Positions 4,771 to 57,466 of a DNA stretch of 64,000 bases are shown piece after piece. The position numbers and the translations under genes were made by a program. This DNA comes from an uncultured virus (IMG/VR IMGVR_UViG_3300006137_000088) (taxonomy: Duplodnaviria; Heunggongvirae; Uroviricota; Caudoviricetes): the IMG/VR virus record IMGVR_UViG_3300006137_000088; one strand, given 5' to 3'. A model generated the notes under the pieces. It was not told the origin of the DNA. It searched no databases and was given only the letters and a program-made list of their open reading frames with translations. Each line of letters starts with the position of its first letter. Positions within the stretch are counted from its first letter, which is position 1.

Positions 4771-6066
4771 TTATGCGATTTTTGATATAATTTTTGAAGT
4801 ATTAGACTTAATCAATGATACTATTCTGTCAAAGTGTTCTGGAACCTGGTTGTATTTGCCACGGCATTGGAGGACCGAGAAGTCCTCTAAAGAAAATTCT
4901 ATAGTTGCGATTGACACACCATTAACCAGGGCATGAAAAATAAGCACATTGTCGTCAGAATAATACCTATTAGTGAAGACACAGTGGTGCCTATATTCAC
5001 CCTCTTCTACAAATTCTTTTACCGACTGAAGAGGTTTGACCACAATTTCCTTATCGACAAATTCCAGATCTAAAAATATTGATTTGGCTTTCTTATATCG
5101 AGCTTCATCAACTTTGTGATTAACCTCATAGCGTTGTAAAGGTGTCATTTGTCTCTCGCGCTCTCTTCGTCTATCTGCTTCATCCATCTTAGCTCGCTTT
5201 TTAGCAATCCATAAATCATGAGCCTCTTTAAGATTGTCAGGACAGATGAATTTTGGATTTCTCAAATCTTTCCCACAGTATTCAAGAGCGTCGAGCATAT
5301 CATACCAAGTTGAAGCATCGGTAATCTTATAATTGTGCCGGAAAGCGACCTTAGCGGAGGGCCAATATTTCTCAAACTCATACTTTTTAGCCAATGAGAA
5401 AGCTACCATTTTGTATTGCCTTAATTTCCATGCCGTCTCAGTTTTATTGCAAGTGAGTAAGCGTTGGAACAAAGTATATGGGGAACAGTTATGAAAATCA
5501 CCGTTATATCCGTTTCTTCGGATTTCTGGAATCACTGAAGATTGCCCGATAACTTTGTAAGGCGTGACATAGTGGCCGTAGTTTTCTGTTCGGATTTCCA
5601 TTTCGCTGTCATAGTTCCATATATCGCAATAACTGCACATCCAATGTCGAGCACGACCAACTATCACTTCTTTGGCATCTGGAGTAAGCCAGCGTTGAAA
5701 AGCCTCACTAATCCAGTATGTAGCCTTCTCGCCTCTTCTCAGATTTGTCTGCATAAAGAACATTCTAACAACCTGACAACCTCCACGCTTGGTTACGATT
5801 GCGAAATAAGCTCTATCACAAAAATTCCACTTGCGAGTTTTGTCAACATCCAGCTTTGCGGAGCAGTGAGGACATACAACCTTAGTAGCCTCATCACCTT
5901 TCCAAGAGTGACCACAATCCAGACACACATATTCTTTCTTAGAATTGTACTTGGCAATATGCGGAGCCACTTTCCTGACAGCTTCCTTATATTGATGTTC
6001 GTTCAAAGGAGAGAGTGTTTTGGATAACTCCAAAATTTTTCTTTGAAATTTGTTTCTGGGTTTCAT
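4771..6066 (-). CDS. PcfJ-like domain protein
   Basis: MKPRNKFQ start, CLDCGH...CPHC Zn motifs, YLD/DML..CP.NL..AHD-type segment and C-terminal EG..HHCV...ATIE...QCRG. Confidence 0.8.
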   Translation of the reverse strand: MKPRNKFQRKILELSKTLSPLNEHQYKEAVRKVAPHIAKYNSKKEYVCLDCGHSWKGDEATKVVCPHCSAKLDVDKTRKWNFCDRAYFAIVTKRGGCQVVRMFFMQTNLRRGEKATYWISEAFQRWLTPDAKEVIVGRARHWMCSYCDIWNYDSEMEIRTENYGHYVTPYKVIGQSSVIPEIRRNGYNGDFHNCSPYTLFQRLLTCNKTETAWKLRQYKMVAFSLAKKYEFEKYWPSAKVAFRHNYKITDASTWYDMLDALEYCGKDLRNPKFICPDNLKEAHDLWIAKKRAKMDEADRRRERERQMTPLQRYEVNHKVDEARYKKAKSIFLDLEFVDKEIVVKPLQSVKEFVEEGEYRHHCVFTNRYYSDDNVLIFHALVNGVSIATIEFSLEDFSVLQCRGKYNQVPEHFDRIVSLIKSNTSKIISKIA

Positions 6067-15332: not shown

Positions 15333-16694
15333 TTAGTCGTCGGGGTCCACGAGTTTATAAAAACATCGCTTTCCGTCGCCGATCGGTTGTTTGATTAGTT
15401 TGGCCCTGAGCGGTTCCGTTATCTCCACGCCCTCCAGCTGGCGGATCAGCGCCTGGCTGCCGGTGAAGGTGATATGCTCCACCCAGTCAGTTACCGGCTG
15501 CCCCGAGTCGTCGATTACCGGGCGGCTCTGCCCGTCCGGACCCGTTTCCGTCAGCGGCTCCTCTATTGAGTATTGCAGCGTCAGGCACGGTTCCGAATTG
15601 TGCTTCGACGGGGCCAGTTTGTAGCCCGTCAGGTGGATTTCCCGGTTCAGGATTGCATCGACATGGTACTTGGTACCCGTCAGGTTGCCCGATGTCTTGG
15701 GCACAAGATCACTAAATTTTTTCATATTGAGAACTTTGAATAAGTGTTTACTGTCGCAGTGTAGCATGAAGCCCGCCCGGCTCGCCGTCAGCAGCATTAC
15801 TTCAGCCTCCGGCACCCCGGCTTTCCTCAGCTTCGCCAGCTCTCTGCATAGTCCCTGCTTGTTTTTCTTGCGTGCCAGGCAGTGAGTGTGAAACGTAACG
15901 TAACCCACAAAGTCAATGCCCCGGCTTTCCACCGGGAAAACCTGGTAATTGCCTTTAAGGTCCACATGCCGCTCCTCGTTCAGCCAGTCGTTGATAAGCA
16001 CCAGCCAGCCGTGCAGCGTCGGTTTGTCCCCGGCAAGCAGCACCATGTCGTCGGCGTAGCGGTAATAATACCGCACCCCGGCCACCTCTTTGAGCAGGTG
16101 GTCGAGTTCCGACAGGTAGAGATTAGCGAAGTATTGGGAAATATAATTGCCGATTGGCACCCCCGGCGCGCTGTCGATTATGCCGTCAAGCAGCCAGAGC
16201 ACCTCCGGGTCCTTGATTTTACGACGCACCACGGCTTTCATCTTGTCGTGGTCTATGCTCGGGTAAAACTTGCGCACGTCCAGCTTCAGGCAGTACGCCG
16301 TCCCCTCCGGGTCGTTCCTCAGGTCCTCGCGCAGCTTCCGCAGCAGTGAGTGCATGCCGCGCCCCTTTATGCAGGCATGCGTGTCGGCGGTAAACTGTGG
16401 CGTCCATATAGGTTCAAGCACCTGCATGATCGCCCAGTGTACCACTCGGTCACGGAATGGCAGTTTATAGATTTCACGGCGTTTGCCCTCGTATTTTATA
16501 AAAACATCATAGGGGCTGGTCTTGTACCGTTTTTCTGTCAGTTCCCGGTGCAGCTGCGCCAGGTTCTCCTCCAGATTGGTGAAAAATGCCGTTACCTCAT
16601 CGCGCTTGCGCTTGCCGCTGGCGGCGTTGTGCGCCGCCTCCCGCAAGTTGTCTATGTCGCAAATGCGCGCATACAAATTGCCATATCTTTTCAT
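15333..16694 (-). CDS. DGR reverse transcriptase with ~130-aa C-terminal extension
   Basis: MKRYGNLY, LPFRDRVVH, KLDVRKFYPSI, GVPIGNYISQ, RYADD, IDFVGY. Confidence 0.95.
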   Translation of the reverse strand: MKRYGNLYARICDIDNLREAAHNAASGKRKRDEVTAFFTNLEENLAQLHRELTEKRYKTSPYDVFIKYEGKRREIYKLPFRDRVVHWAIMQVLEPIWTPQFTADTHACIKGRGMHSLLRKLREDLRNDPEGTAYCLKLDVRKFYPSIDHDKMKAVVRRKIKDPEVLWLLDGIIDSAPGVPIGNYISQYFANLYLSELDHLLKEVAGVRYYYRYADDMVLLAGDKPTLHGWLVLINDWLNEERHVDLKGNYQVFPVESRGIDFVGYVTFHTHCLARKKNKQGLCRELAKLRKAGVPEAEVMLLTASRAGFMLHCDSKHLFKVLNMKKFSDLVPKTSGNLTGTKYHVDAILNREIHLTGYKLAPSKHNSEPCLTLQYSIEEPLTETGPDGQSRPVIDDSGQPVTDWVEHITFTGSQALIRQLEGVEITEPLRAKLIKQPIGDGKRCFYKLVDPDD

Positions 16695-33397: not shown

Positions 33398-34054
33398 ATG
33401 GCCCAACTCACAGAAAACAATTTGCAGCTGCTTGACACCGCCGACCTCCTGGCGCGCGCCGAAGCTATCCGCGACGCCGTGCAGGCTAAAACTATATCGG
33501 CCCAGCAGGTGGGACAGCTCTTTTGCGACCTTACGGAAGCCTGCGGCGATATTAACAAGGCCGTGCGCCTGTTCCTCTCCGTGAACGTGCCGGAACTGCA
33601 AAACGACATTGACGCACGCCTCGCCGGTGCCGACGCTGCCGCCGCCAATGCCGCCGCCGAAATTCAGCGGTCAGAACAGACCCGCGCATTGGTGGAGGCT
33701 CTCGTGGCGAAGCTCTCCACCCAAAACCTCAATGCCCCGGAGCGTGTGGATATTACCTCGGTGCCGGCGGTCGTTACTATCTCCAACCCCGTGCGGCAGA
33801 AAATCGGCGCGGCCCTTTTCCCGCGCTTCGGCCTCGGTTCTGTCCTGTTCATCAGCGACCACAAGGCGGTCGAAGTTACCCCCGACGGCTTTGTGCGGCC
33901 CGTTGCACTCGGCCGCTCTACGGTCCACGCTGTCGCCACGGCTGACACATCGGTTTATAAATCTCTTTGCATTGAAGTGGTGCCACCACGCCTGCGCCTC
34001 ACTGCGGCCGGTGCCCTCCGCCTCGACGGCAAAGGTAACATAAGGCTTACATAA
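33398..34054 (+). CDS. Virion protein with C-terminal Ig-like domain
   Basis: VTPDG.V.PV..G...VH; ends RLDGKGNIRLT. Confidence 0.6.
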   Translation: MAQLTENNLQLLDTADLLARAEAIRDAVQAKTISAQQVGQLFCDLTEACGDINKAVRLFLSVNVPELQNDIDARLAGADAAAANAAAEIQRSEQTRALVEALVAKLSTQNLNAPERVDITSVPAVVTISNPVRQKIGAALFPRFGLGSVLFISDHKAVEVTPDGFVRPVALGRSTVHAVATADTSVYKSLCIEVVPPRLRLTAAGALRLDGKGNIRLT

Positions 34055-35268
34055 TGGACTCTATCAGACATATAAACTACAAAAGCGATTTCATTGTCCG
34101 CGAGCGCTTCCGCGATGCCGCCGGGGCTTTTGTCGCTATCCCTGCCGAAGTCGATTTTGAGCTGCGCTACTGGGTAAAGCCGGGGCGGCAGTTCATAGCC
34201 TCCCGTGTCGGCGGCGAGTACACTAATTGCACGCCCGACGGCGATGCCCTCCTGGTCATTTTCAAGGATCACGGCTTTTGCGAGGGTGTGCTGAAACATG
34301 AATTGCACCTGCGGCTGGTCAACGGCTTTATGCCCGACGGCGTGCAGAATGTCTATTACCCCGAAGACATGGCCGTGCAGCTCTGGCACCTCGGCGACGA
34401 TGCTCTGGGCGTTATCGAGTCCGGCGTGGTGGCTGCCTATACCCGCGGCCTGCCGTTCACTTTCGACGATTTTACGCCGGCGCAGATTGAGATCCTCCAG
34501 CGTCCGGCTCTTGAAGCTGCCGAAAAAGCGGACGCCGCGACCACCAGGGCCAACACTGCCGCTGCCAAAGCGGAGCGACTGACCGGGGAACTGTCGCGCA
34601 CAGGCGCAAGGGTTTTCAAGGATTGCACCGACGCCACCTCTGACGCTCAGACCGCCACGCGCAACGCCGACACCGCAACCGCCGACGCTCAGGCGGCAAC
34701 CACTGCCGCCTGCGATGCCACCGACAAAGTGCTGAAACAGGCACAGGAACTTGACACCACCTCCGCAGCTGCCGTCCGAGATTGCAACACCGCCAAAACT
34801 GCCGCCGACAAGTCAAAGGCAGCCGCCGACATTGCCGCGAAGTCTGCCACTGACGCGGCCACTGCGACAAACGCCCAGCGTGAGCTCACGGAACAGAGCC
34901 GCCAGCGCCTCGAAGCGGTCGCCGACCGTGCGGAACTGGCAGCCGCCCCGGTGCCCGACGGCCTCCGCGTCGATTGCCCGGCACAGCTCACTCTCGGCAA
35001 CCCTGTGCCGCGTTTCATCAGTGCCCGCGTGCTGCCACCCTCCGCACTCCAGAATGTCATTTACCAGGCTTTCGGCGGTGCTGCCGGAGTGGAGCCCGAC
35101 GGCAGGATTCTGCCGTTCCGTCCCGGCATTGCCCGCGTCCATGTCATACCCACCGGCGGCACGCGCTTCTATAAGACCGTAACTGTGCAGGTGGTCGCCC
35201 CGGCTCTCCGGCTTGCCGCGCCGGGCGTCCTCCGCCTCGACAGTGCCGGCAATATCCGTTTAACTTAA
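34054..35268 (+). CDS. Virion protein with Ala-rich coiled stalk and Ig-like C-terminus
   Basis: A/T/D-rich repeats; VEPDGRI.P..PG...VH; ends RLDSAGNIRLT. Confidence 0.65.
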   Translation: MDSIRHINYKSDFIVRERFRDAAGAFVAIPAEVDFELRYWVKPGRQFIASRVGGEYTNCTPDGDALLVIFKDHGFCEGVLKHELHLRLVNGFMPDGVQNVYYPEDMAVQLWHLGDDALGVIESGVVAAYTRGLPFTFDDFTPAQIEILQRPALEAAEKADAATTRANTAAAKAERLTGELSRTGARVFKDCTDATSDAQTATRNADTATADAQAATTAACDATDKVLKQAQELDTTSAAAVRDCNTAKTAADKSKAAADIAAKSATDAATATNAQRELTEQSRQRLEAVADRAELAAAPVPDGLRVDCPAQLTLGNPVPRFISARVLPPSALQNVIYQAFGGAAGVEPDGRILPFRPGIARVHVIPTGGTRFYKTVTVQVVAPALRLAAPGVLRLDSAGNIRLT

Positions 35269-35280
35269 CATCTCCGTATA

Positions 35281-36525
35281 ATGGCCAATATAATCACAAG
35301 CATTCGCGACTGGTTCGACCGCCCCACGCGCGCCGAAGTCATGACCCTGGCGCGAATGGCTTCCAGCAAACAGGGTCTCAAGATAACCGCGCAGCTGCTC
35401 CAGCAGACCGACACACTCACTAAAAAGGACATTAACGACTGGCGCAACGCCCACCAGGTCGCACTCGACTACGAAAACCCAAACCGCCAGCGGCTTTATG
35501 ACATTTACGCCGACTGTGAGCTCGACGCCCACCTCTCCGGCTGTATCGCCCAGCGCAAGGGCAAAGTGCTGCAAAAGGATTTCCGCCTCGTCGACAGCAA
35601 CGGCAAGGAAGATGTCGCCGCCACGGAACTGCTGCAACAGGAATGGTTCGCCGATTTCCTGGGCTATGTGCTGGACTCCGCATACTGGGGGCACTCGCTC
35701 ATACAGCTGGGCGATGTCATTCGCGGCGACGGCGTCATGCGTTACGACTGTGTGGAACTGGTGCCGCGTAAACATGTGATCCCGGAATATGGCCGCGTGG
35801 TCATTAACCCCGGCGACGACTGGCGCAGCGGCATTCCGTACCGCGAGGGCGATTTTGCCAACTGGTGCGTGGAAGTGGGTAAGCCCCGCAACCTCGGCCT
35901 CCTGCTCAAATGTGCCTGCTCTTACATCAGCAAAAAGAATATGCTCACGTTCTGGGATATGTTCGGGGAGATATTCGGCCAGCCTATGCGCATAGCCACT
36001 ACCAACAGCCCGGACGAAAGCGAGCGTGCCCGCGTGGAGCACGCGCTCGAAAACATGGGCGCGGCGTTCTGGGGTCTGTTCCCTGAGGGCACCAACATTG
36101 AGATCAAGGAAAGCAGCCGCGGCGATGCTTACAACGTGTTCGACCGCCGCATTGACCGCTGTAACTCGGAAATGTCAAAGGCCATTCTTAACCAGACCAT
36201 GACCATTGACTCCGGGTCCTCGCTCTCTCAGTCCGAGGTGCATCTTGAAATTTTTGAGCGTACCACCGAAGCCGACGCCACTATGGCCGGCTATACTGTA
36301 AACGGCCGGCTGCTCCCGCTCATGGCCGCCCACGGCTTCCCGGTCAAGGGCAAACGCTTTGTCTGGAACAATGCCGCCAGCTACACCCCGGCCGAACAGC
36401 GAGAGATTGAACGCCTGCTCCTGGAGTATTACGAAATTCCCGCCGACTATTTCACCGACAAATACGGCGTGGCCATTGACAAGCCCCGCGAAAGCAAGAC
36501 TCAGCCCGACCGTTTTTTCGACTGA
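35281..36525 (+). CDS. Portal protein (Mu gp29/DUF935)
   Basis: DAHLSGCI..RK, W..F.E.FGQP.R, EMSKAILNQTMT. Confidence 0.9.
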   Translation: MANIITSIRDWFDRPTRAEVMTLARMASSKQGLKITAQLLQQTDTLTKKDINDWRNAHQVALDYENPNRQRLYDIYADCELDAHLSGCIAQRKGKVLQKDFRLVDSNGKEDVAATELLQQEWFADFLGYVLDSAYWGHSLIQLGDVIRGDGVMRYDCVELVPRKHVIPEYGRVVINPGDDWRSGIPYREGDFANWCVEVGKPRNLGLLLKCACSYISKKNMLTFWDMFGEIFGQPMRIATTNSPDESERARVEHALENMGAAFWGLFPEGTNIEIKESSRGDAYNVFDRRIDRCNSEMSKAILNQTMTIDSGSSLSQSEVHLEIFERTTEADATMAGYTVNGRLLPLMAAHGFPVKGKRFVWNNAASYTPAEQREIERLLLEYYEIPADYFTDKYGVAIDKPRESKTQPDRFFD

Positions 36526-36533
36526 GCCCCGCC

Positions 36534-38105
36534 TTGCAGCTGGCTGACACGGCGGGGCGGCTCCGGCGCTCATATCTCGCGTTTAACGCCGCTTTGGGGT
36601 CGTTGTATGAAAATGACTTGCTGGAGCTCGCGGACGCGACAGACAAGCCCAATTTTGACGACACGGCCTTTTTTGACGCTGCCGGCATGGTTTACAACGC
36701 CGGCGGCTTCGATGCCTCGCAGCTCACAACTCCCGAAGCGCGCCGCCTCATTGCCGAAACAGTGAAGCAGCTTAAAACGGCTATTGCCTCCGGCGTTCCC
36801 CATGAGGTCCCCGAAGTGGTGCGCTACGCCCTCGAAAATAACGCTTTTATTTTCTCCGGGTTCAAGGCTTACCACACTCTGCGCGAGGTGGGGCTGTCCC
36901 TCCTGACCGACAAGGGCGATATTAAACCCTTTGAAACGTTCCGCAAAGATGTTGAAACGGTAAACAACCGATATAATCACAATTACCTCTATGCGGAGTA
37001 TAACCACGCCGTCGGCGCCTCCCTCATGGCTTCGCGCTGGCAGCAGATTGAAAAAGACGGCGACCGTTACGACCTGCAATATCGCACCGCCCAGGACGAC
37101 CGCGTGCGTGAGGATCACGCCATTCTGCACGGCACCACGCTGCCGCCCTCCGACCCGTTCTGGTCGCTCTATCTGCCGCCCAACGGCTGGAACTGCCGAT
37201 GCACCGCCGTACAGGTCCACAAGGGCAAATATCCCCAGAGCGACCCGACCCTCTCCATGCTCCGGGGCAACAACTGCACCGAAGCCGCCAAACAGCAGAT
37301 TTTCCGTTTCAATCCCGGCAAGGACCTGCAACTGTTCCCACCCAAACACCCGTATTTCAAAGCACCCGAAGCGGCTAAACAGGCAATAGAGCAAATGAGT
37401 GAGGAACAGCAGCGCGACAAGCGCATCGCTGAAATTATCGCGGAACTGCCCGACACTCTGACCGAAGCGGAAAAAAAGCCCGTTGCGGAGCACTGTCTGG
37501 AAATAGAAAAAGCCCTCGGCATTACAAAGGGCAAGCCTATGAGCGTGGACGACGCCGACAAGCAGCACGCTAACCCCAATTATGGCAAGGAGCGCGGCTA
37601 TGGTATAAACTGCCAGACCTGTTCGCCCGCCTATGCGCTGCGCCTCATGGGCTTTAACGTAACGGCGAAGTCGAACACTCCAGGCACAAAACTGGATTAC
37701 CTGAGCCGGGGCAACCAGCTGTGGGAACAGTGGCAAAATCTCGACGGAACGCCGGCGAAGCATACCAGCATCAACGACTGGATGGCCGGTAAAAAATACA
37801 AACTTATGACACAAAAAAGGTATGTGGAGTTTTTCAATGAGATTTGCAAGGATCCCGGCGTTTATATGCTCTCTATCGGCTGGAAAGGGGGCGGCGGTCA
37901 TGCCACCATTTTACAACGTTTTGCCGACGGCACTCTGCGCTATATTGAGCCGCAGCATGACAACTCCAAAGGGTCCGGGCGTGAAAGCCACGATTTGGAC
38001 TGGCTCGGTAAAAACGGCGCGGCAACCATGCACGGCTGCCGCGGTATAATGCGAGTGGATAACAAACTATTTAATGTCGCTTTCGCTGAGATTTTCGACA
38101 AATGA
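36534..38105 (+). CDS. MuF (gp30) minor head protein with C-terminal papain-fold toxin domain
   Basis: LQYRTAQDDRVR..H, PPNGWNCRC (MuF); INCQTC...GGGHA...IEPQ (papain-fold NC/H/xPQ pattern); no ATG at the 5' end. Confidence 0.85.
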   Translation: MQLADTAGRLRRSYLAFNAALGSLYENDLLELADATDKPNFDDTAFFDAAGMVYNAGGFDASQLTTPEARRLIAETVKQLKTAIASGVPHEVPEVVRYALENNAFIFSGFKAYHTLREVGLSLLTDKGDIKPFETFRKDVETVNNRYNHNYLYAEYNHAVGASLMASRWQQIEKDGDRYDLQYRTAQDDRVREDHAILHGTTLPPSDPFWSLYLPPNGWNCRCTAVQVHKGKYPQSDPTLSMLRGNNCTEAAKQQIFRFNPGKDLQLFPPKHPYFKAPEAAKQAIEQMSEEQQRDKRIAEIIAELPDTLTEAEKKPVAEHCLEIEKALGITKGKPMSVDDADKQHANPNYGKERGYGINCQTCSPAYALRLMGFNVTAKSNTPGTKLDYLSRGNQLWEQWQNLDGTPAKHTSINDWMAGKKYKLMTQKRYVEFFNEICKDPGVYMLSIGWKGGGGHATILQRFADGTLRYIEPQHDNSKGSGRESHDLDWLGKNGAATMHGCRGIMRVDNKLFNVAFAEIFDK

Positions 38106-38315
38106 CCCGATTATTTCAAGGGCTTCAAATTCGCCCACCTCCCGGAGTTTGTCGCCTTTCACCAGGTACACCGGGGGAAAGCCAGCGGTTACATCATCAG
38201 GAAAACGGTAATAAAAAGCCTCCGCACCCTGGTACTGCCCGAGGTGCTCTATGTGGTCGCCGTACATATCAACAAGATACTGCGCCGCCTGTCTGACTTT
38301 TGCCGGTATTTCCAT
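38067..38315 (-). CDS. Small protein convergent with the MuF toxin (candidate immunity/moron)
   Basis: 82 aa; TAAATTTG on minus at 38330-38323, 7 nt before the ATG. Confidence 0.6.
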   Translation of the reverse strand: MEIPAKVRQAAQYLVDMYGDHIEHLGQYQGAEAFYYRFPDDVTAGFPPVYLVKGDKLREVGEFEALEIIGSFVENLSESDIK

Positions 38316-42282: not shown

Positions 42283-42554
42283 TTTTTCGCTCTTTTGGGG
42301 TTCACATAAGCCCAGCCCATAAGCCGGGCGGCAGGCAAGCCAATGCCGGCAACGCCTTTTATGCCTGAATTGGCAGCCCTTACGCAGAAATCGCCGTCCT
42401 CGTCCACCTCTCCATCACTGTACCCGGTATAAACCTGGAAATTGTTAAACACGAAGTAAGCCTCGCGCCGCCCGTCTATCATCGGCAGCGTGTCGGGCGA
42501 TTTTAGAACCCGACGTTTGCCGCCCTTGAAAGTTACTGTTATCTTTCCACTCAT
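42279..42554 (-). CDS. Hypothetical protein
   Basis: Start MSGKITV via ATGA overlap with the MuB stop. Confidence 0.6.
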   Translation of the reverse strand: MSGKITVTFKGGKRRVLKSPDTLPMIDGRREAYFVFNNFQVYTGYSDGEVDEDGDFCVRAANSGIKGVAGIGLPAARLMGWAYVNPKRAKK

Positions 42555-43405
42555 TGCGCACCTCCTTTCAGCATGGCCCACACGCTGCGTTTTACGCGCC
42601 TCAGGTCGCCGTCTGCCTCGTCCACGATCTTGTTTATTGCCTTGGTATCGCGCACGCCGTTGGAAACGCATACACGCGCTATGTCCTCACTGTCCGGCAG
42701 CGGCAGTTCCACGAATTTGCGCCCTATGCGGCTGTAAATTTCCGCATACCCTTTGCGGTTCAGGCGCAGCCCCTTTTCAATCCGCGCTTTCAGGTTGCTG
42801 GTCGCGGTCAGGATTATGCCGCACTGGTCCTCGAGCTGATTATACAGGCTTATGAAAAAATAAAGCACCTGGTCGCTCAGTTTGTCGGCCTCGTCCAGAA
42901 CTATCAGCGGCGAGTCCTTGCGCTTCAACGTGTCCACGATATTGTCCATCATGTCGCTTACCGTGGTGCCCGCTACCGTCGCGCCCATGTTCTGCAACAG
43001 TTTCGCCATGAATGTGCGCCGGTTCCAATACTCGGAGCAGACCATGTGATAGACATTGCGTCCGGCTGCGGTGTAGTTCTTTATGGCTTCGGTCTTGCCG
43101 CTCCCGGCTCCGCCGATAACTGCGGCAGTCAGAGAGTCGGCCTGCACGCTGGCAAGCGTGAATGTCATTATATCGTAGGCGCGGGTCTTCACCACCTGCC
43201 ACCCGTTGGCTTCGGCTGTCCCTGTCTGGGCGGCTATGCTCCGCCACATGTCGTCGGCTATTGTGTCCCACTGTCCCGAAAGTATTTTGCTGACTGTCGC
43301 GCTGCTCACCCCGTTAAGGCTGTTGGCGGCTTTGTTCTGGCTCCCCTTTTGCCCGCAGTAGGCGCGGAGCTGGTCGGCAATCTGTTGTTTCTGTTCTGTT
43401 GTCAT
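42551..43405 (-). CDS. MuB-like AAA+ transposition ATPase
   Basis: N-terminal HTH, GGAGSGKT, IVLDEADKL, YSRIG; follows the transposase. Confidence 0.9.
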   Translation of the reverse strand: MTTEQKQQIADQLRAYCGQKGSQNKAANSLNGVSSATVSKILSGQWDTIADDMWRSIAAQTGTAEANGWQVVKTRAYDIMTFTLASVQADSLTAAVIGGAGSGKTEAIKNYTAAGRNVYHMVCSEYWNRRTFMAKLLQNMGATVAGTTVSDMMDNIVDTLKRKDSPLIVLDEADKLSDQVLYFFISLYNQLEDQCGIILTATSNLKARIEKGLRLNRKGYAEIYSRIGRKFVELPLPDSEDIARVCVSNGVRDTKAINKIVDEADGDLRRVKRSVWAMLKGGAQ

Positions 43406-43418
43406 GTCCTTTTACGTC

Positions 43419-45467
43419 TTAAAAAATTGAATAATCGTTTACTTTCACACTTTCCACCGCGTCGCCCTGGCGTGTTACAGGTATCTCCACGGTTTCCACC
43501 TCTAAGGCTTCGATGTCGGCGGCGGCAAGTCTTTTGCGGCTGCGGTTGTCTTTGTGCTGCCCGCGGCTGTCCGTCAGCATGAGCCGGTCTTCCATGCACG
43601 CGCCCAGTGCCGGGGTGCCGTGGATCGGCAGTTCTGCGGCCCGCTCTATCACGCGCCGGGCTCCCTCGAAGTGGTCGCCCATGCGCCGCGCGGTCTCGGC
43701 TTCCAGCTCTTTGTTGAAGTCGCGCACCCTCTGGAGCTGCTCTGCGTCGCCGGGCTTCCGGTCGGCTAATGCCATTGGCTGCACATACTTTTCCTCAAGC
43801 ATATAGCGGCGTGTGCCTGCTTCGTTCACTGCCAGAACTTGCGTCAGGTCCTCGGGGTCATACTTGACCGTCCAGCGCTCTGAGGCGTGGTCCCTGAATG
43901 TCAGGTCGAAGCAGTCATAATCACGCTTCACGCCTAAAATGGTGGGGCGCAGTCCGCAGCCCTCCAAAACGTTCTTAAAGCCGGTTTCTGCGCCGAAGTT
44001 CAGCAGGTACATTTCGCGGCTCATGGGCAGACGGTGTTCCGGTTTCAGCTTCGCCAGCTTCTCCATGAGCTTGCCGATTTTCTGCGCACGCTCCAGCCTC
44101 ATTATTTCATCTATCTGCGCCCGGAGTCCGGCTTCATCGGGGAAGCTGTGCCGTCTCTTGTTCAGCGCCTCGCTGTTCGGTTGCCGCATCGGGTCGGTCG
44201 TTACACCGTAGCCGGCCCAGTTCGGAAACAGCTGGCAGTAGGTCATGTTTAAGTGCTTGAAATAAGGCTCTACGGGCTTCGATTTTGCGTTGTGCGCCTG
44301 TGCCGGTATCACCTTGTCGCCTAACACTGCGTACAGGTCGGTCATGGTCTTTATCGCGTAGCGGTCGCTCTGCACCTGGTTGTATCTGAGCATTTCGCCG
44401 GTCAGCTCCCGGCTGTGGATCGCGGCGTTCCTTAATGCCGCTTTTATCAGTTCCGGGCACTCATGGTCGCCGACGGCGTAGCCCATTGGATAGTCGACGC
44501 ACGGGTCAAGCACTACCACGATTGTAAGGCGGTTGGTGTAGGTCGTTATGTTGTGTCCCTTGCTGTCCGTCTTGGTTTTCTGATACAGCAGCTCGACGGT
44601 CCAGCCGTCAAGCGAGCACATCAGGAACGGGGCGGTCGGTCGGCTGCGCTTAACCTGCATGGTCTTGCGGTTTCGGAAGTTGGTAACGCCTAACCGCCCG
44701 GCGGCTGCCTCTAATTGCAATTTCTCGCGCCATACTCCCACGGCGGCCGCTGTTATCTCTTTCCAGCCCAGTGCCCGGGCTTTCACGTTGTAGGCTTTCG
44801 CCACCACAGTGTCCTGCACGTTGTTGGGGTTGCTTATCAGCGTGGCGAGATAACCGGTTTGTTCATCGGTCAGCACCTTGCCGGCGTTGCCGTTCAGGAA
44901 TTTGCCGGAAATAAAGCACACATAACCGTCGCGCACATACTCCGCGAATTTCATTTGCAGACGGCGCGGGCTGCCGGGCAGTGAGTGGTTGAAGCGGTCA
45001 GCCAGACGCGGCAGGGCTGCCGCTGCTCGGCTCCAGAACTCTTTGCCGGCGACTGCCTTTTTGCCGGTGCGCTGCCGCTTGCTCACATGAGCGTCCCAGC
45101 AGCGCCGGAAAGCGTTCATGATCGCCGCGTTGCTCGCGTACTCCAGCACTTTGTCATCTGGCAGGTTCCGCCCGTCGGCAAGCTTGTAAGTCTGGTAAAA
45201 GTTTAAGGCTGCGCCGTCAGGTTCCACAGTGTCTATAAACTCCCGGCTCTCGGCCTGTTCCTGCAAGTCCGGGTAACGCTTGTAAACCTCGGTCCGCCAT
45301 TTCATCGGCAGGCTTTCAACGGCATACAGCGCAGTCCGCCCGTTGCCGCCCTTTTGGACCTGTTGCACTCTACCACGGCGCACCAGATTGTTAAGGTTGG
45401 CGGTCGTGATTATGCGCCCGGTCAGTTCGGCGTGGCTTATGCAGATTGTTCCGTTTACTGTTTCCAT
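43419..45467 (-). CDS. MuA-like DDE transposase
   Basis: SLDGW, QSDRY, KSKPVEPYF; 682 aa. Confidence 0.9.
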   Translation of the reverse strand: METVNGTICISHAELTGRIITTANLNNLVRRGRVQQVQKGGNGRTALYAVESLPMKWRTEVYKRYPDLQEQAESREFIDTVEPDGAALNFYQTYKLADGRNLPDDKVLEYASNAAIMNAFRRCWDAHVSKRQRTGKKAVAGKEFWSRAAAALPRLADRFNHSLPGSPRRLQMKFAEYVRDGYVCFISGKFLNGNAGKVLTDEQTGYLATLISNPNNVQDTVVAKAYNVKARALGWKEITAAAVGVWREKLQLEAAAGRLGVTNFRNRKTMQVKRSRPTAPFLMCSLDGWTVELLYQKTKTDSKGHNITTYTNRLTIVVVLDPCVDYPMGYAVGDHECPELIKAALRNAAIHSRELTGEMLRYNQVQSDRYAIKTMTDLYAVLGDKVIPAQAHNAKSKPVEPYFKHLNMTYCQLFPNWAGYGVTTDPMRQPNSEALNKRRHSFPDEAGLRAQIDEIMRLERAQKIGKLMEKLAKLKPEHRLPMSREMYLLNFGAETGFKNVLEGCGLRPTILGVKRDYDCFDLTFRDHASERWTVKYDPEDLTQVLAVNEAGTRRYMLEEKYVQPMALADRKPGDAEQLQRVRDFNKELEAETARRMGDHFEGARRVIERAAELPIHGTPALGACMEDRLMLTDSRGQHKDNRSRKRLAAADIEALEVETVEIPVTRQGDAVESVKVNDYSIF

Positions 45468-49121: not shown

Positions 49122-51491
49122 ATGTGGAGATTAACAGAATTAAAAATCAGGAATATTGTCTCTTTTCATGAGGCAACCTTAAAAATCCAGCAGGGTGTAG
49201 CTACTCTAATCTTTGGCAAAAACGAGGATAATGCTTCCCAGCCTAATAATGGCTCCGGCAAATCTTCGTTGATTGAAGCCATATCTCTTGCCCTGAATGG
49301 TGAACAGCTACGCAAAGTGAAGAGCGTGGAAGAGATTATCAATGATCATGCAGATGAGGCGTATGTCTATCTCAGACTTGATAATGATTATGATGACACT
49401 GTATTTACTATTGAGCGCAATATAAGTCGTAATGCAGCTCAGGTTGTCGAGTGTCACAAATATGCTGCTACCGGTGAAGAGATTGAGACAGATAAGACTA
49501 TCCAGCCTACAGTCTCTGATTACAATAAATTCATTCTCAGCGAAATCGGTCTCTCAAAGGATGATATTTATAATAATTTCATTCTTTGTGATAACAAGTA
49601 TGAGAGCTTTTTCGATTGCTCTGATAAGAATAAGAAAGAGGTTATCAATCGCTTCAGTAATGGCTTCATTATTGATGAGAGTATCGCCCGTGTTCAAGCC
49701 GACATGGAGCCTATTTCTGTGCGCTTAGGTGAAGCTAATAATACTGTCATAAATATTAAAGGCTCGATCTCCGCCATAGAGAATGAGCTTGTTCAGGTTG
49801 ATGAGAAGAAGGCAAATGCAAAAGAAGAGCGGGAGGCGCGCATCGCAAGATTGGACCGGCAGATTCAACAATGCCGTGAAGATATTGAGGCTGTTGAGGA
49901 TAAAAAGCAAAAAGGAGAGAAAAGACTTGAACTTTTGCAAAGCCTCCAAACCAGTGTGGCCAGTCTGGAAGAATCCGACACAGCGTTGTTGGAAGCGTAT
50001 AATCAGATAAAGCAAATGTGTCAGGACCATGAACTTGGCACTATCAGTGAATATGATGCTTTATCTGAAAAATATAAGCAGGAACTATCAAATCTGACTG
50101 TTTCGATTAAAGATATTAAAGCTCAGATTATTGAGGCTTCCAGACTGGTAAAGAAACGTCAGAAATCTTATGAAGAGCAAAAAACTCTTTACAATCAACA
50201 CTCTAACGAACAAACAGAGCTGACAAAACAAGATCAGGCTTTGATTGAAAAAATCAATAAAGAGATTGCGAAAATTGATCAGCAGCTTGATAATATTGAG
50301 GCTCAGGTAAAAACTCACAAAAAACGTCAAGCGGAATTGGAGGCTTTGATTGCTAAAAATTCTGCGATGATGGATGGGGTTGTTATCTGCCCTAAGTGTG
50401 AGCATAAGTTTTTTGTTGGCAACGAGGTTTCTGTCGAAGAGATTAGAAAAAATCTCGTTGGTTTCCGTACTGAAATGGAAGAAAGCAAATCCAAAGTTGA
50501 AAAACTCAACGAGGAATTTGACTCGATAGATGAAAAAGCTGAAACCAAATCTGAAGAAGCTGATGAGATCAACAAGAAAATCAAAGCTCGCAATATTGAA
50601 CTTAATAATGAGTATTCTGCTCTGGTAGCTTTATCAAGGGAGGTTGACCAGTCAGAAAATAACGTGTCTGTACTTCAGAAACGCCTGGTATCAACTGAGA
50701 ATGATCTTGATCGACTGAATGGTAAGATTGAGGTCCTGCGTAACCGTCTTTTTGGTGAAATCAATGGTGTTCTGGAAGGCCGTGTAATGAATGGTGAAAA
50801 CTTCATTAAGCAGCAGGATTCGTCTATTAAGTTTATCCAGGGTCAGATGACACAATACCAGCAATCCAAGAGAGATATACTGGAGGCCCCGGAAACAGAT
50901 TTTGCAGCTTCCTTAAAGGCGTCTCTGGAGAAATATCAGGCAGATCTTGAAAAAGCAGAAGAGATTGTAGCTGATGTTCAGGCAGAATACAACCGCCTGA
51001 AAGAGCAAGAGGTGCATTTCACTATGTTCAAATCTCATATTGCCAGAAAGAAAATTGATGCACTATCTCTCATTGTCAACGACTTTCTTGAAAAGATTGG
51101 TTCAGATATTCGACTCAAACTGGAAGGATTCACTGTAACCAAGACTGGTAAGCTGAGAGATAAGATTTCAGTTCAGGTGATGCGCGACGGCATTGACTGT
51201 GGCTCCTATCATAAGTTCTCCGGCGGTGAAAAGGCTCGATTAAATCTGGCTTGCATCTTATCTCTTCATACTCTTACTAACTCAAATTGTGAGGACGGTA
51301 AAGGACTGGATTGCATCATTATAGATGAGTTGCTGGATAAGTCTGATGAAATGGGTATGGCAACATACTGTGAGGCACTAAACAAGCTCGGACAGACTGC
51401 TCTCCTGATCACTCAGGGAGGTGTCTCAGAAAGCTATCCGCATAAGCTATTAATAGTAAAAAAACAAGGAATTTCAACAATTTCAAATTAA
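49122..51491 (+). CDS. SbcC/Rad50-like (gp46) ATPase
   Basis: NGSGKSS, coiled coils, CPKC zinc hook, FSGGE, IIIDE. Confidence 0.92.
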   Translation: MWRLTELKIRNIVSFHEATLKIQQGVATLIFGKNEDNASQPNNGSGKSSLIEAISLALNGEQLRKVKSVEEIINDHADEAYVYLRLDNDYDDTVFTIERNISRNAAQVVECHKYAATGEEIETDKTIQPTVSDYNKFILSEIGLSKDDIYNNFILCDNKYESFFDCSDKNKKEVINRFSNGFIIDESIARVQADMEPISVRLGEANNTVINIKGSISAIENELVQVDEKKANAKEEREARIARLDRQIQQCREDIEAVEDKKQKGEKRLELLQSLQTSVASLEESDTALLEAYNQIKQMCQDHELGTISEYDALSEKYKQELSNLTVSIKDIKAQIIEASRLVKKRQKSYEEQKTLYNQHSNEQTELTKQDQALIEKINKEIAKIDQQLDNIEAQVKTHKKRQAELEALIAKNSAMMDGVVICPKCEHKFFVGNEVSVEEIRKNLVGFRTEMEESKSKVEKLNEEFDSIDEKAETKSEEADEINKKIKARNIELNNEYSALVALSREVDQSENNVSVLQKRLVSTENDLDRLNGKIEVLRNRLFGEINGVLEGRVMNGENFIKQQDSSIKFIQGQMTQYQQSKRDILEAPETDFAASLKASLEKYQADLEKAEEIVADVQAEYNRLKEQEVHFTMFKSHIARKKIDALSLIVNDFLEKIGSDIRLKLEGFTVTKTGKLRDKISVQVMRDGIDCGSYHKFSGGEKARLNLACILSLHTLTNSNCEDGKGLDCIIIDELLDKSDEMGMATYCEALNKLGQTALLITQGGVSESYPHKLLIVKKQGISTISN

Positions 51492-52732: not shown

Positions 52733-53300
52733 TCCTAAATGGCGGTTTACACAGAGCGGTATGGTTGCACTCTATATTCAAAATGGATTGCAACAACTAC
52801 CGGCTTTGTTCGGTGTCTCAGATATTGATGATGAGCGAATTGTTGATTATCTGGTGTATCAGATATACCGATACCGGACATCTATTGCTAATGGCTCCTG
52901 GCAGTATAATTATCTGTTTTCTCAGGCAGCCTTGGAGAAGTATCGAAACCAATTCCTTAGCACTGATGGTAAATCAGGGATGAATTTCTACATCAATCAA
53001 TGGTTGGATGAGGCTGAGTTGTCAAGGGGGCAGCTTACTTCAATGATAACAAAGCCGAAACCCAATCCATTGAAGAAAATGGTTTATCTTGCCTCGGAGG
53101 AACCTATAAAAAAGCGGTTTCTGAATACGAATGAGGGATTGGCCTTGTGTCAACGGTCAACGACCGGCTGGAGTCCGCTTTCAGAGGCTTGCGGACGATG
53201 TGATAACTGGGTGGAGTGTGGCAAAATGACCGCTAAGAAGTATCCAGAGCTTATGCGGTACAGAAAAGAAGTTTATCATCATGGCAGGAAAGAAAAATGA
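52665..53300 (+). CDS. Hypothetical protein with C-terminal Cys cluster
   Basis: 211 aa between sigma factor and helicase. Confidence 0.7.
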   Translation: MELQEKTIKVRQMIETVVKRTIDPKWRFTQSGMVALYIQNGLQQLPALFGVSDIDDERIVDYLVYQIYRYRTSIANGSWQYNYLFSQAALEKYRNQFLSTDGKSGMNFYINQWLDEAELSRGQLTSMITKPKPNPLKKMVYLASEEPIKKRFLNTNEGLALCQRSTTGWSPLSEACGRCDNWVECGKMTAKKYPELMRYRKEVYHHGRKEK

Positions 53301-54639
53301 AAACGTCTTGACTTCTGAGTTCCTTGCGGAGCTGTATAATTGCGCTATCACCAACAATCAGGTGTGTTCGGTGGTGTGCCGTTATATGGAGGATTCATTT
53401 CTCCCGGATCCGCAGTATCAGCTGCTCAATTCCACTCTGAAAGGGCATTTCAACGAATATAAAACGGCCCCTCAGTATGGCATTATCTCCCAGCGTTTAT
53501 CTTCATCACGAGCAGTGTCTGAATTGCTGGAGGAAATCAAAGAGGTTGCTACCAGTGTAAATCCTGAGAGTATTCGAGACCAATTTGAAGAGTATCTGAA
53601 ACTGGTTCAGTTTAAGAAAATCATCAAAGAAGTCAACAAGAAATACGAGGATGGGGAGCGTATTTCAGCAATGATGGCCTTTACCAAAGAGGCATTGAAG
53701 CTCCAGCAGTTCTCACTAAAACCGGAAGAGTTTATTGACATCGCCCAGACATACGAAGAGCGTTTGCGCGAAAACAAGGTGCGCAATGAAAACCCGGTAG
53801 CTAAGATGGTCAATAGCTTCTATATTGATGGTCTTGATGAGATGAATCAAGGGCGTAATCTTCGCACTCAGCTTTCTCTCTTCTTGGCTATGTCTGGTGT
53901 CGGCAAAAGTCACATCGCTCGCTGGATTGGCTATAATGCCGCTTACATCAGTGGTCTTGATGTACTCCACATACAGTTGGAGGGCGCTGCTTCGGAAACC
54001 ACAGATGCGTATTCTGCAATGTTGAGCGGAACTACCACCTATGAATATGAGAGTGGCAAAGTTAACAATCATACATTAGAGCATCTGAAAAGTATGCTCG
54101 ACACCTACAAAGGCACTTTGAGAGTAAAGGCTTACCCTAAGTTCGGCAAGGAAGTTTCGACCACTGACATCAGAACCGACTGTGATAAATATCGTGAGAA
54201 ATATGGCAAATATCCAGACGTGATCATCGTTGACTCGCTTGACCTCTGTACTGACTCTTCGGGTAAGAACTGGGATTCTAAATCCTTACGTCACAAGCGT
54301 ATCGCAACCGCTCAGGACTTGAAAGATTTGGCCGGTGAAACTGACAGCTGGCTCGTTGTCACTTATCAGGCTACCATTGAAAATCCTGACTGGGTGAATG
54401 ATGAGAAGAATGTGCTTACGGCTTTCAATACCTCAGAATGTAAAGGACTTCAGCGCCCTTGTACTCATTTGATTTCTCTCAATCAGAGTAAAAAAGAGTA
54501 TCGAGAAGGCACTATGCGACTCTATGCCGACAAGTTCCGTTTCTGCAAAAAGGGAGAGCCTTTCAGAATTGCTCTTGACTATGAGCATGAGGTGTTCTAT
54601 GACAGAGTACGCACTCTTAATCTTCCCCAAGAGTCTTAA
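53281..54639 (+). CDS. DnaB-like replicative helicase
   Basis: AMSGVGKS, HIQLEG, IIVDSLD, TYQA, KFRF. Confidence 0.85.
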   Translation: MAGKKNENVLTSEFLAELYNCAITNNQVCSVVCRYMEDSFLPDPQYQLLNSTLKGHFNEYKTAPQYGIISQRLSSSRAVSELLEEIKEVATSVNPESIRDQFEEYLKLVQFKKIIKEVNKKYEDGERISAMMAFTKEALKLQQFSLKPEEFIDIAQTYEERLRENKVRNENPVAKMVNSFYIDGLDEMNQGRNLRTQLSLFLAMSGVGKSHIARWIGYNAAYISGLDVLHIQLEGAASETTDAYSAMLSGTTTYEYESGKVNNHTLEHLKSMLDTYKGTLRVKAYPKFGKEVSTTDIRTDCDKYREKYGKYPDVIIVDSLDLCTDSSGKNWDSKSLRHKRIATAQDLKDLAGETDSWLVVTYQATIENPDWVNDEKNVLTAFNTSECKGLQRPCTHLISLNQSKKEYREGTMRLYADKFRFCKKGEPFRIALDYEHEVFYDRVRTLNLPQES

Positions 54640-55705: not shown

Positions 55706-57466
55706 ATGAAAGAGGTAGTATCATTAAAAGAATGGCTGGATAACCATAATATCACTTATTCTTTGCGTAAGGACGTGGTTGTCATTCCTGGATTTGGCCG
55801 TTGTCTTATTCAGGATGATTATGACCACATCTTCAAACAGACTAAAGAGGGGAATGTGGTATTCAACAGCATTGAGAATTATTCTTATCTGATTGCAGAT
55901 GAGATATATTATATAGTTTTTCCATTTGGTTGTCGGTGGTTTTACATTGATGTCCGCAAAGATCCATCGGAAGTTCAATTCAAAATACTGCGCTATGTTG
56001 GCAATACCCCTACATTCCAACATGAATGTGAATTTTATCCTTTAGGTATTCATTCCGGATATGAGCTATTGAATGGCAGTGGCTTATTGAAAGACTGGTG
56101 TACTAAGGCTAAGTTTTTAGGCTACAAAGGGCTGGCTGTGGCAGATAGGAACACTATGGCTGCATCTTTGGATTTACAGCAGTCAGCTACTGATGCCGGA
56201 TTAAAATATTGCTTCGGATATTCATTAACCGTGCGTACTGGCAAGGATAAGGTCGGAGTAAAGCTCTACTCAGCTACACAACAGGGGTTTAAGAATATGT
56301 TGCGTATTCAAAAAGCCATTGCTGTTGATAACTATGAGACAAAGGAGATAGACCTAATCACTCTTCTTAATCTTGCTGAAGGCAATACCTTGGTGTTTGA
56401 TAAGTGGAGTGGCCATTGGCTTACCGAAAATAAGAACGCCCTTCAGGATTTTGTTGAAGCATTTGATGGTTGGGTATTCTTTCAGGTTGACACTTCAGAA
56501 TATCGAGCCGACAGAATTGACTCTGCATTATTGCAAAGCCAAAAGGCATTTTTCGACAACTTTTATCAGGGTAATCTGGAGTATTCAATGAATATTCGCC
56601 CAGTTATGATTCAAGATGTTTATTATCTTGATAAAGAGGATTGGCGCACTAAAGTTATTCTCAATAAGGTTGATACTGGAGCAGCTCACGAGCAATCATA
56701 TAAGCAATATCTCAAAACGATTGATGAGATATATGATGAGTTCCGCACTCTCTTCTCCGATAGATATGACGATGAAGTTTTCTATGATATGTGTGAAGCG
56801 ACTGCCGACATCATTGAGAACGCTTCGGCTGCTTATGATCTTAGCGATAACTATGCCCCCAAGTATGATATGACTCCCCAGGAACGTGAGAAGTATGGCG
56901 ATACTTTAACTATGTTCCGATCATTGATTGAGGAAGGATTTAAGAAGCTGGTTCCTGAAGGAGAGGAAGAAGCGTATCGTAAGCGTGTCGAATATGAGAA
57001 GTACGTTATTGAAAGCACCGATAATGTTGATTATTTTCTCATCCAGAGAGATGAACTGAATTGGGCCCAGGAAAATGGTATCTTGACTGGAATTGGTCGA
57101 GGTTCTGCCGGTGGGTGCCTACTACTCTATCTTATGGGTATCACATTTATTGATCCCCTGAAATATGATTTGATTTTTGAGCGTTTCTTGTTGCCGGAGC
57201 GCGCCGGTCTGGAGCCGGATAAGGTAACTGTTATGGCCGATGATATAGAGTCCTCAGATTACTTTGAGTTGGCCTTAGATGATGATAAGATACTCTTGCT
57301 CGATAAGGATGCTGAGTTAGTTGTGATCAGAAATGGTGAGCAGCTAACCGTATATGCAGATGAGTTGCAAGAAGGTGATGACATTCAGTTCGATAACTGT
57401 GATATACTTCACACCTTACCCAAGAAACTTCTGCATGAAAATTCGAGCAATAACTCACAAAACTAA
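55706..57466 (+). CDS. dnaE: DNA polymerase III alpha (DnaE), N-terminal half
   Basis: PHP-like domain, DYFLI, GIGRGSAGG, IDPLKYDLIFERFL; ends in an intein-like fragment. Confidence 0.9.
   Translation: MKEVVSLKEWLDNHNITYSLRKDVVVIPGFGRCLIQDDYDHIFKQTKEGNVVFNSIENYSYLIADEIYYIVFPFGCRWFYIDVRKDPSEVQFKILRYVGNTPTFQHECEFYPLGIHSGYELLNGSGLLKDWCTKAKFLGYKGLAVADRNTMAASLDLQQSATDAGLKYCFGYSLTVRTGKDKVGVKLYSATQQGFKNMLRIQKAIAVDNYETKEIDLITLLNLAEGNTLVFDKWSGHWLTENKNALQDFVEAFDGWVFFQVDTSEYRADRIDSALLQSQKAFFDNFYQGNLEYSMNIRPVMIQDVYYLDKEDWRTKVILNKVDTGAAHEQSYKQYLKTIDEIYDEFRTLFSDRYDDEVFYDMCEATADIIENASAAYDLSDNYAPKYDMTPQEREKYGDTLTMFRSLIEEGFKKLVPEGEEEAYRKRVEYEKYVIESTDNVDYFLIQRDELNWAQENGILTGIGRGSAGGCLLLYLMGITFIDPLKYDLIFERFLLPERAGLEPDKVTVMADDIESSDYFELALDDDKILLLDKDAELVVIRNGEQLTVYADELQEGDDIQFDNCDILHTLPKKLLHENSSNNSQN

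Follow-up and report, generated by a model that had tools for sequence, protein, structure and literature searches.

The window analysed here, a stretch of 64,000 nucleotides (nt) from an uncultured tailed virus (IMG/VR record IMGVR_UViG_3300006137_000088; Caudoviricetes), encodes a phage portal protein and, directly 3' of it and one base out of frame, a MuF-toxin. The locus raises the question of where translation of the MuF-toxin begins and whether it is made as a separate protein or as an extension of the portal. As was proposed in a first-pass annotation of the window, the MuF-toxin is very probably joined to the portal by a conserved -1 programmed ribosomal frameshift at the 3' end of the portal gene, a reading that is supported by the conservation of the slippery heptamer, the downstream stem and the frame offset, each in a large and diverse set of relatives.

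The portal open reading frame (ORF) codes for a Mu-type portal, matching Portal_Mu (E 2.7e-80) over profile positions 1-336 of 336 as well as the portal family phrog_113, and closes at 36511-36525 with CGT TTT TTC GAC TGA, the stop codon being TGA 36523-36525. The T_TTT_TTC heptamer in this end has the X_XXY_YYZ phase relative to the portal ORF and leaves one sense codon before the stop. Six nucleotides further downstream, GCCCCGCC (36526-36533) pairs with GGCGGGGC (36551-36558) in a stem of eight base pairs (bp), all G-C or C-G, that is present in the minimum-energy structure computed with RNAfold. An open -1 frame extends from about 36480 to 38105 and contains both a Phage_Mu_F domain (E 4.7e-15) and a Gln_amidase domain (E 3.8e-18). 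The features of the junction are the following.

35281..36525, + strand: portal gene, 0 frame, 414 amino acids (aa); from the translation and the matches to Portal_Mu (PF06074) and phrog_113.
36513..36519, + strand: slippery heptamer T_TTT_TTC, on which both slipping tRNAs would be tRNA-Phe; from the letters and their conservation.
36520..36525, + strand: spacer of 6 nt, GAC and the portal stop TGA; from the letters and the helix distances in relatives.
36526..36558, + strand: predicted stimulatory hairpin, 8 pairs and a 17-nt loop holding TTG 36534; from the minimum-energy structure, helix scores and covariation.
36519..38105, + strand: -1 frame after the slip, first codon CGA 36519, 528 aa, stop at 38103-38105; linker, N-terminal helix, MuF domain and glutamine-deamidase toxin.
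36534..36536, + strand: TTG in the hairpin loop, first TTG of the -1 frame and sole canonical start candidate near the slip site; not conserved.
36549..36608, + strand: conserved MuF N-terminal helix of the LRxxYxAFNxALxxLY type, residues 11-30 after the slip; from the alignment, the structure model and codon-position variability.
36687..36689, + strand: first ATG of the -1 frame, codon 57 from the slip, within predicted helix 48-61; from the structure model.
36939..37208, + strand: Phage_Mu_F domain (PF04233), residues 136-225 counted from TTG 36534.
37605..37961, + strand: papain-fold glutamine deamidase toxin domain (Gln_amidase, PF15644), residues 358-476 counted from TTG 36534.

The in-phase heptamer, the stem 6 nt downstream of it and the open -1 MuF frame thus all lie where the first-pass annotation had placed them, and their arrangement agrees with the canonical signal that it had invoked (X_XXY_YYZ, a spacer of 5-9 nt and a stem). 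In the mechanism proposed, tRNA-Phe would sit on UUU in the P site (36514-36516) and on UUC in the A site (36517-36519) when the ribosome meets the GC hairpin, the base of which would be at the mRNA entrance, 6 nt ahead. On some passages the two tRNAs would re-pair one base back on U_UUU_UU and reading would resume at CGA 36519 in the -1 frame. The predicted trans-frame product consists of portal residues 1-413 followed by 528 further residues, which would form a flexible linker of about 10 residues, the MuF domain and the C-terminal glutamine-deamidase toxin; at 941 aa it matches the fusion of about 940 aa put forward earlier. Ribosomes that do not slip would incorporate one more residue, Asp, before terminating at UGA, and so produce the plain portal of 414 aa.

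A search with the portal protein recovered 17 loci in species-representative genomes and 43 in viral contigs, nearly all of them Bacteroidales by their record titles. TTTTTTC stands one codon before the portal stop in 60/60 of these loci, and a long downstream ORF in the -1 frame follows in 59/60, the remaining locus ending 24 nt past the stop. A profile built from nine portals (best 80 of 137 relatives) added 76 new loci, among which the portal stop was in range in 75, with TTTTTTC at -10 in 74 and TTTTTTT in one; MuF was in the -1 frame in all 73 evaluable loci, at portal identities down to 50%. These relatives include Segatella, Porphyromonas, Alistipes, Odoribacter, Paludibacteraceae and Lentimicrobiaceae. 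At a portal identity of 29%, Bacteroides phage p00 has CGT TTT TTC, a 6-nt spacer, a GCCCCG/CGGGGC stem and MuF in the -1 frame, the two ORFs being annotated in its GenBank record as separate coding sequences (CDSs), each a 'hypothetical protein'. In the p00 clade, 28/29 loci have TTTTTT[CT] in phase and a GCCCC stem after it, 27 of them with MuF in the -1 frame.

All loci were combined in a single tally with the junctions anchored by local tblastn, a motif-anchored classification having been dropped after it failed for 52/79 loci. Of 331 loci, 304 were evaluable, and these reduce to 241 unique junctions from Bacteroidota phages at portal identities down to about 25-30%. An in-phase TTTTTT[CT] is found in 207 of the 241 and any in-phase X_XXY_YYZ in 234, distributed as follows.

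-1 offset, two ORFs: 170 junctions; TTTTTTC in 150 (132 with a helix above the control 95th percentile), TTTTTTT in 2, AAATTTY in 9, AAAAAAR in 5, GGGAAAG in 2, none in 2.
In frame, one ORF: 63 junctions; TTTTTTC in 54 (53 with a strong helix), AAAAAAR in 6, CCCTTTT in 2, none in 1.
+1 offset, two ORFs: 6 junctions, 3 of them without a heptamer.
Other: 2 junctions.

Separate ORFs that share one frame occur at a single junction. The replacement heptamers occupy the same junction region, namely A_AAT_TT[TC] (9), A_AAA_AA[AG] (5 in the first class and 6 in the second), G_GGA_AAG (2) and C_CCT_TTT (2), where the rare words of the fused genes come from a longer search region and may in part be chance matches. 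All four words turned up in a final scan with a fusion-protein profile (best 80 of 595 relatives). There, A_AAT_TT[TC] followed by one codon, the stop and a GGGG stem was found in Dysgonomonas, Limibacterium, Lentimicrobiaceae, Carboxylicivirga and one Flavobacterium, and runs of 8-9 A (A_AAA_AA[AG]), in both polarities and with no clear hairpin, in Flavobacteriia, Saprospiraceae and one metagenome-assembled genome (MAG) of Rikenellaceae. The A-run loci are L252, L304, L308, L314 and L320, and L309, L317, L319, L321, L322, L324, L326 and L330; the A run corresponds to an invariant KK in the alignment of fusion proteins. In Flavobacterium phage lotta8-2, which displays a plain state, the two genes are separate and offset by +1, with an ATG start. 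A portal 100% identical to that of the window (L001/L061) is filed under a 'Ruminococcus sp.' MAG and a few other relatives under MAGs of Clostridia, Oscillospiraceae, Staphylococcus or Akkermansia, the great majority being Bacteroidales; these non-Bacteroidales assignments are probably binning artefacts rather than real hosts.

The constraint on the slip site can be separated from that on the protein in 33 portal clusters, formed on the final 145 residues at less than 85% identity. Immediately before TTT TTC stands GAT in 8 clusters, CGT in 7, TCT in 6, AGT in 5, GCT and GGT in 3 each and CCT in 1; these codons specify six amino acids and have T as the third base in 33/33, against 19% T at this codon position in the portal bodies. 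For the first Phe, TTT is used in 33/33 clusters, despite TTT being the minority Phe codon (163/580), and FF pairs elsewhere in the same portals use all four codon combinations. Because the preceding codon varies in amino acid yet ends in T and the first Phe is always TTT, the conservation of the slip site, as read from these clusters, is exerted at the nucleotide level.

The hairpin was evaluated by a helix search in each sequence, using 88 unique 97-nt segments (two of which are stray T7 sites elsewhere in the loci) and 3000 random positions in the same loci as control. The best helix begins 3-9 nt past the heptamer, mostly 5-6, and has 4-12 bp; its score exceeds the 95th percentile of random positions in 82% of the segments. 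The 5' arm GCCCCGCC varies to GCCCCAC, GCCCCTC, GCCCTGTGCC, GGGGGCAGGGA, GGGGCTG, CGGGCGT and GGCGCACG, and the 3' arm matches each; the arm thus flips from GCCCC to GGGGG, or becomes CGGGCGT, with its partner following. Hairpin alignments made with MAFFT were discarded, the arms of complementary or differently sized stems having been misaligned, and covariation was scored on a gapless alignment of 33 distinct hairpins that share one geometry (8 bp, 7-nt loop). Two-sided changes occur in 8/8 pairs (39 cells), and the covariation score is 0.449 against 0.083 when shuffled, with none of 500 shuffles reaching the observed value and slid partners giving at most 0.116. The arm flip alters the overlying -1-frame peptide from SP to GG, and such a change in the peptide suggests that the constraint acts on the RNA rather than on the protein. 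In L112, a Paludibacteraceae MAG with 60% portal identity, GGT TTT TTC GAG TAG and the -1 offset are kept, and the helix search found no convincing helix downstream.

The MuF coding sequence can be followed back to the slip site. The -1-frame translations align from the first post-slip codon, and a Y..F....L..LY helix lies 10-37 codons past the slip in 122/136 junctions, with Y19 invariant and L29 nearly invariant in the alignment of the N-terminal helix. Variability by codon position in the helix region is 0.945 / 0.602 / 1.441 in the -1 frame, which is a coding-type pattern. An AlphaFold model of the first 320 post-slip residues, built on a 33-sequence alignment, has a predicted local distance difference test (pLDDT) of 89.4 and a predicted template modelling score (pTM) of 0.87; in it, linker residues 1-10 are disordered, helix 11-30 has a pLDDT of 73-83 and ATG 36687 falls in the middle of helix 48-61. 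Among 79 unique stretches from the upstream stop of the -1 frame to the helix, 26 lack ATG, GTG and TTG altogether, 65 lack ATG and 10 have starts only upstream of the slip site, and TTG 36534 is not kept even among portals that are 90-100% identical. On these alignments, the MuF coding sequence is conserved right to the slip site and has no conserved start codon. At E 1e-5, MuF is found in 78 of 82 -1 ORFs of relatives, Gln_amidase in 27 and LPD3 in 6, the other C-termini matching no family at this threshold, so that the toxin cargo, judged from its domains, is polymorphic.

The first-pass annotation had named the heptamer, the stem and the frame offset as what should recur in related phages, and all three do so: TTTTTT[CT] and the -1 offset at the frequencies tallied above, and the stem both in helices stronger than the controls and in compensatory changes. 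Compared across the relatives, the heptamer, its phase, the spacer, the hairpin with its compensatory changes and the -1 offset are all conserved. The observations that it had set against its own proposal, an independent MuF start at TTG 36534 or at a later ATG with no conserved slippery site, were not made; the TTG is unconserved, the ATG lies inside a predicted helix and about a third of the stretches (26/79) are startless.

Relatives in which both parts share one frame add a second side to the junction. Among the longer portal homologues, 54 proteins (746-991 aa) combine Portal_Mu with Phage_Mu_F, frequently together with a toxin domain. One of them, P0002, aligns with the portal over its residues 3-404 and with residues 14-294 of the -1 frame of the window over its residues 425-705, making it colinear with the predicted trans-frame product, and the PHROG profiles 35074 and 220 each span the portal and MuF halves. 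The 854-aa 'portal' of Porphyromonas phages (BK0680xx) is such an in-frame portal-MuF fusion, and its gene keeps CGT TTT TTC, the 6-nt spacer and the GC hairpin, the -1 frame stopping after 19 codons. Its relatives in viral contigs (78 loci) supply 39 unique junctions of the in-frame pattern, in which NNT TTT TTC in phase and the hairpin are kept, the 0 frame continues for 275-464 codons and the -1 frame ends after 16-32. Across the tally, 54/63 in-frame junctions keep T_TTT_TTC, and the -1 frame reached by a slip closes after 1-32 codons (median 20). In these lineages a slip would, by this arrangement, yield a truncated, plain portal, a polarity absent in the window, where it is the 0 frame that ends, one codon on, and the -1 frame that continues for 528 codons. 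Stronger hairpins in the in-frame clade, which would fit a higher slip rate, were ruled out by the median minimum free energy (MFE) of 50 nt, which is -17.3 for the 54 in-frame junctions and -19.4 for the 150 -1-type junctions, against -8.7 for random windows. In the database protein P0009 (885 aa, 10 member sequences, assembled from public runs), FF is followed directly by -1-frame residues without a change of frame; possible origins are a naturally occurring T7 version of the site, an error in assembling the homopolymer, or a U insertion in an assembly derived from RNA.

The existence of in-frame relatives with the same cassette means that the fusion, which the first-pass annotation took for a minority product, should not simply be assumed to be one. 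A broader proposition, held with slightly more belief than doubt, is that the portal-MuF junction of Mu-like Bacteroidota phages is a family-wide two-product recoding switch that exists in both polarities and provides each virion with a dodecamer in which plain and cargo-bearing portal subunits are mixed, with a slip rate that is tuned by lineage or close to one half and that fixes the number of toxin cargos held above the portal channel and delivered together with the DNA. For the window itself, the MuF-toxin would be made mainly or only as a portal fusion, which would co-assemble with plain portal subunits into the dodecamer. The frameshift efficiency would then set the number of MuF-toxin cargos at the portal vertex inside the head, and the cargo would exit along with the DNA, perhaps following a cut by the prohead protease.

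Several observations weigh against the frameshift reading. The bare T_TTT_TTC occurs 25 times in the window where 18.7 +/- 4.5 are expected, i.e. at chance level, and the fold of the whole 88 nt is unremarkable for its composition (z = -1.1, RNAfold); the above-chance signal, as far as the letters tell, is the combination of heptamer and hairpin and the conservation of both in relatives. The relatives are mutually related and were found by searches seeded with this portal family, so that the counts overstate independent events, and the rows used for covariation were preselected for at least 7 of 8 pairs, which biases the percentage paired and, less so, the two-sided changes. Only a weak helix is present in 18 of the 150 TTTTTTC junctions of the -1 two-ORF type. 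The retention of the cassette in 54 one-frame junctions is unexpected if its sole job is to reach the MuF frame. Initiation at TTG 36534 would retain the entire MuF fold and thereby allow an independent start, and some lineages have an ATG 9-12 codons past the slip; free MuF may also be made to some extent from this TTG or from such lineage-specific ATGs.

That there is no recoding at all, and that the MuF-toxin starts by itself at TTG 36534, ATG 36687 or a non-canonical codon, is very improbable. The FF motif and the hairpin would then be kept as a C-terminal motif of the portal, or as a structure that throttles or couples translation of the MuF-toxin after portal termination, and TTG 36534 indeed sits in the hairpin loop, 9 nt past the portal stop. 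Since initiation in Bacteroidota does not depend on Shine-Dalgarno sites, the lack of one is uninformative, and public records annotate the portal and MuF as separate CDSs. This account is opposed by the 26 stretches with no canonical start before the conserved helix, by the poor conservation of TTG 36534 even among near-identical portals and by the nucleotide-level retention of the preceding third-base T and of TTT-TTC instead of the preferred TTC. It is opposed as well by the exchange of the heptamer for other X_XXY_YYZ words and by the distribution of offsets, with -1 at 170 of the 241 junctions, +1 at 6 and same-frame separate ORFs at one.

Transcriptional slippage, by which RNA polymerase would add one U in the T6 run and some mRNAs would be in one frame with no slip of the ribosome, is an improbable source of the fusion. 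The site is a homopolymer run, P0009 reads across the junction in one frame like the trans-frame product, and the 8-9 A runs without a clear hairpin in Flavobacteriia, Saprospiraceae and some Rikenellaceae relatives resemble the transcriptional slippage known for Thermus dnaX; in these A8-9 lineages it may replace ribosomal slippage. The T run is only six long, however, which is short for efficient polymerase slippage, and the words A_AAT_TTY, G_GGA_AAG and C_CCT_TTT are not homopolymers, yet are in-phase X_XXY_YYZ. The covarying hairpin 5-6 nt downstream is a classical ribosomal stimulator, and lengthening to T7 is seen in just 4/207 junctions. Contigs from four mouse-gut metatranscriptome libraries (one study) span the junction with no letter gained or lost in the T run; such contigs lose rare variants and may include DNA, so that they carry no weight either way on slippage or expression, and the lack of an inserted letter counts for little against polymerase slippage. 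The same four libraries hold two co-occurring phage variants, one being that of the window and the other about 9% different (variants at 36126-36538), with C at 36534 and hence without the TTG. The variant contigs break and rejoin at a common exact stretch, 36504-36531, that spans the heptamer and the 5' arm of the stem.

Among known systems, the predicted -1 frameshift at the portal end resembles in layout that of the tail assembly chaperone gpG/gpGT, which reportedly occurs in lambda and most long-tailed phages and is said to have been described by Levin in 1993 and by Xu, Hendrix and Duda in 2004, as referred to in PMC7302621, PMC2628397 and PMC7911831. In both, a heptamer near the end of the upstream structural gene extends a fraction of the product into a downstream ORF without a conserved start, and the event is kept across diverged phages while the heptamer varies, the presumed purpose being a fixed ratio of two forms. 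The junction of the window differs in its gene pair (portal and MuF), in the covarying GC hairpin as predicted stimulator and in an extension that carries a polymorphic toxin, and in some portal-MuF relatives the cassette is retained where the two parts share a frame. In dnaX of Escherichia coli, a heptamer and a downstream hairpin give two products, tau and gamma, from one gene, the slip yielding the shorter gamma. The in-frame relatives with T_TTT_TTC share this polarity, in which a slip leads to an early stop, whereas the slip in the window would extend the protein rather than truncate it.

In-frame portal-MuF fusion genes are also described for the Microbacterium phage clusters EA3/5/8 and EB in the account given in PMC7302621. 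The domain order of portal, MuF and optional toxin is common to these phages, to Porphyromonas BK0680xx, to the 54 fusions and to the window, in which, unlike in these single ORFs, the halves are one base out of frame and a slip is needed. MuF polymorphic toxins of temperate phages are treated by Jamet et al. 2017 (PMC5576092), and the main text of PMC11699363 covers the Bxa toxin of Bacteroides stercoris and names glutamine-deamidase versions in Bacteroidales, where small ORFs follow the MuF toxins. The window shares with these toxins a MuF domain and a variable C-terminal toxin just 3' of the portal, and small ORFs thereafter; in the descriptions of the two papers, MuF toxins are, in contrast, free-standing proteins with their own N-terminus, and the word 'frameshift' is absent from both main texts. 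The binding of SPP1 gp7 to gp6, as quoted in PMC5576092, is non-covalent, whereas the link in the window would be a peptide bond made by recoding. For the MSTV1-like archaeal viruses, the account in PMC11375127 gives a -1 frameshift that joins an Ig domain to the capsid protein, and a direct fusion in one relative. That case is alike in that some copies of a structural protein gain a C-terminal domain, and differs in the protein and the domain, with no toxin cargo in what is described for MSTV1. No description of a portal-MuF frameshift was found in the literature covered, which left out subscription journals and supplements, the hits being on tail-chaperone or capsid frameshifts.

If correct, the portal-MuF frameshift would explain how MuF-linked toxins are recruited to phage heads and in what number, namely by a peptide bond to the portal formed at an RNA-set rate, and it would bear on the Bxa family of gut Bacteroides, which is studied for host colonisation. 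It would be a second widely conserved frameshift in the structural genes of tailed phages, beside that of the tail chaperone G/GT, and the two polarities would offer a natural experiment on the tuning of frameshift efficiency. For annotation, hundreds of Bacteroidota phages and prophages carry a MuF gene that is given an arbitrary internal start or labelled 'hypothetical', so that the true N-terminus would be missed.

The junction lies within a Mu-like transposable prophage of a gut Bacteroidales host. Between 19.4 and 28 kilobases (kb), the reverse strand encodes a tape measure protein, sheath, endolysin, major head protein and protease-like protein, while the forward strand carries, in order, the small terminase (28358), large terminase (TerL, 28832), adaptor (30657), portal (35281), MuF-toxin, a 64-aa ORF and a neck protein (38371). 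GemA-like, ATPase, MuB-like and MuA-like genes follow on the reverse strand at 40.8-45.5 kb (MuA/MuB-like, 42554-45467). The MuF-toxin accordingly shows two traits of MuF polymorphic toxins, a position directly 3' of the portal inside the phage head module and a MuF domain with a C-terminal toxin domain. The small ORF downstream of it had no family match in profile searches and is, from its position, a candidate for the cognate immunity protein:

38102..38296, + strand: 64-aa ORF, overlapping the toxin stop by 4 nt, putative immunity protein; from its position.

Just 5' of the portal, two forward-strand ORFs (33398-34054 and 34054-35268) share a C-terminal family, phrog_20680 (E 5e-22 and 1e-25), of unknown function; phage p00 has no genes of this type between its adaptor and portal. 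Two reverse-transcriptase (RVT_1) genes are encoded on the reverse strand. That at 15336-16694, a match to phrog_1423 (E 8e-128) situated among tail genes of the prophage, is suggestive of a diversity-generating retroelement, and that at 2927-4198 adjoins a PcfJ-like gene (4774-6066) outside the prophage. At 57354-60431 (+), an ORF resembling the alpha subunit of DNA polymerase III is split by an intein-splicing domain with an HNH endonuclease; the surrounding block, which also encodes an AAA_23 protein (49122-51491) and a DnaB-like helicase (53281-54639), may be a second mobile element or a phage replication module.

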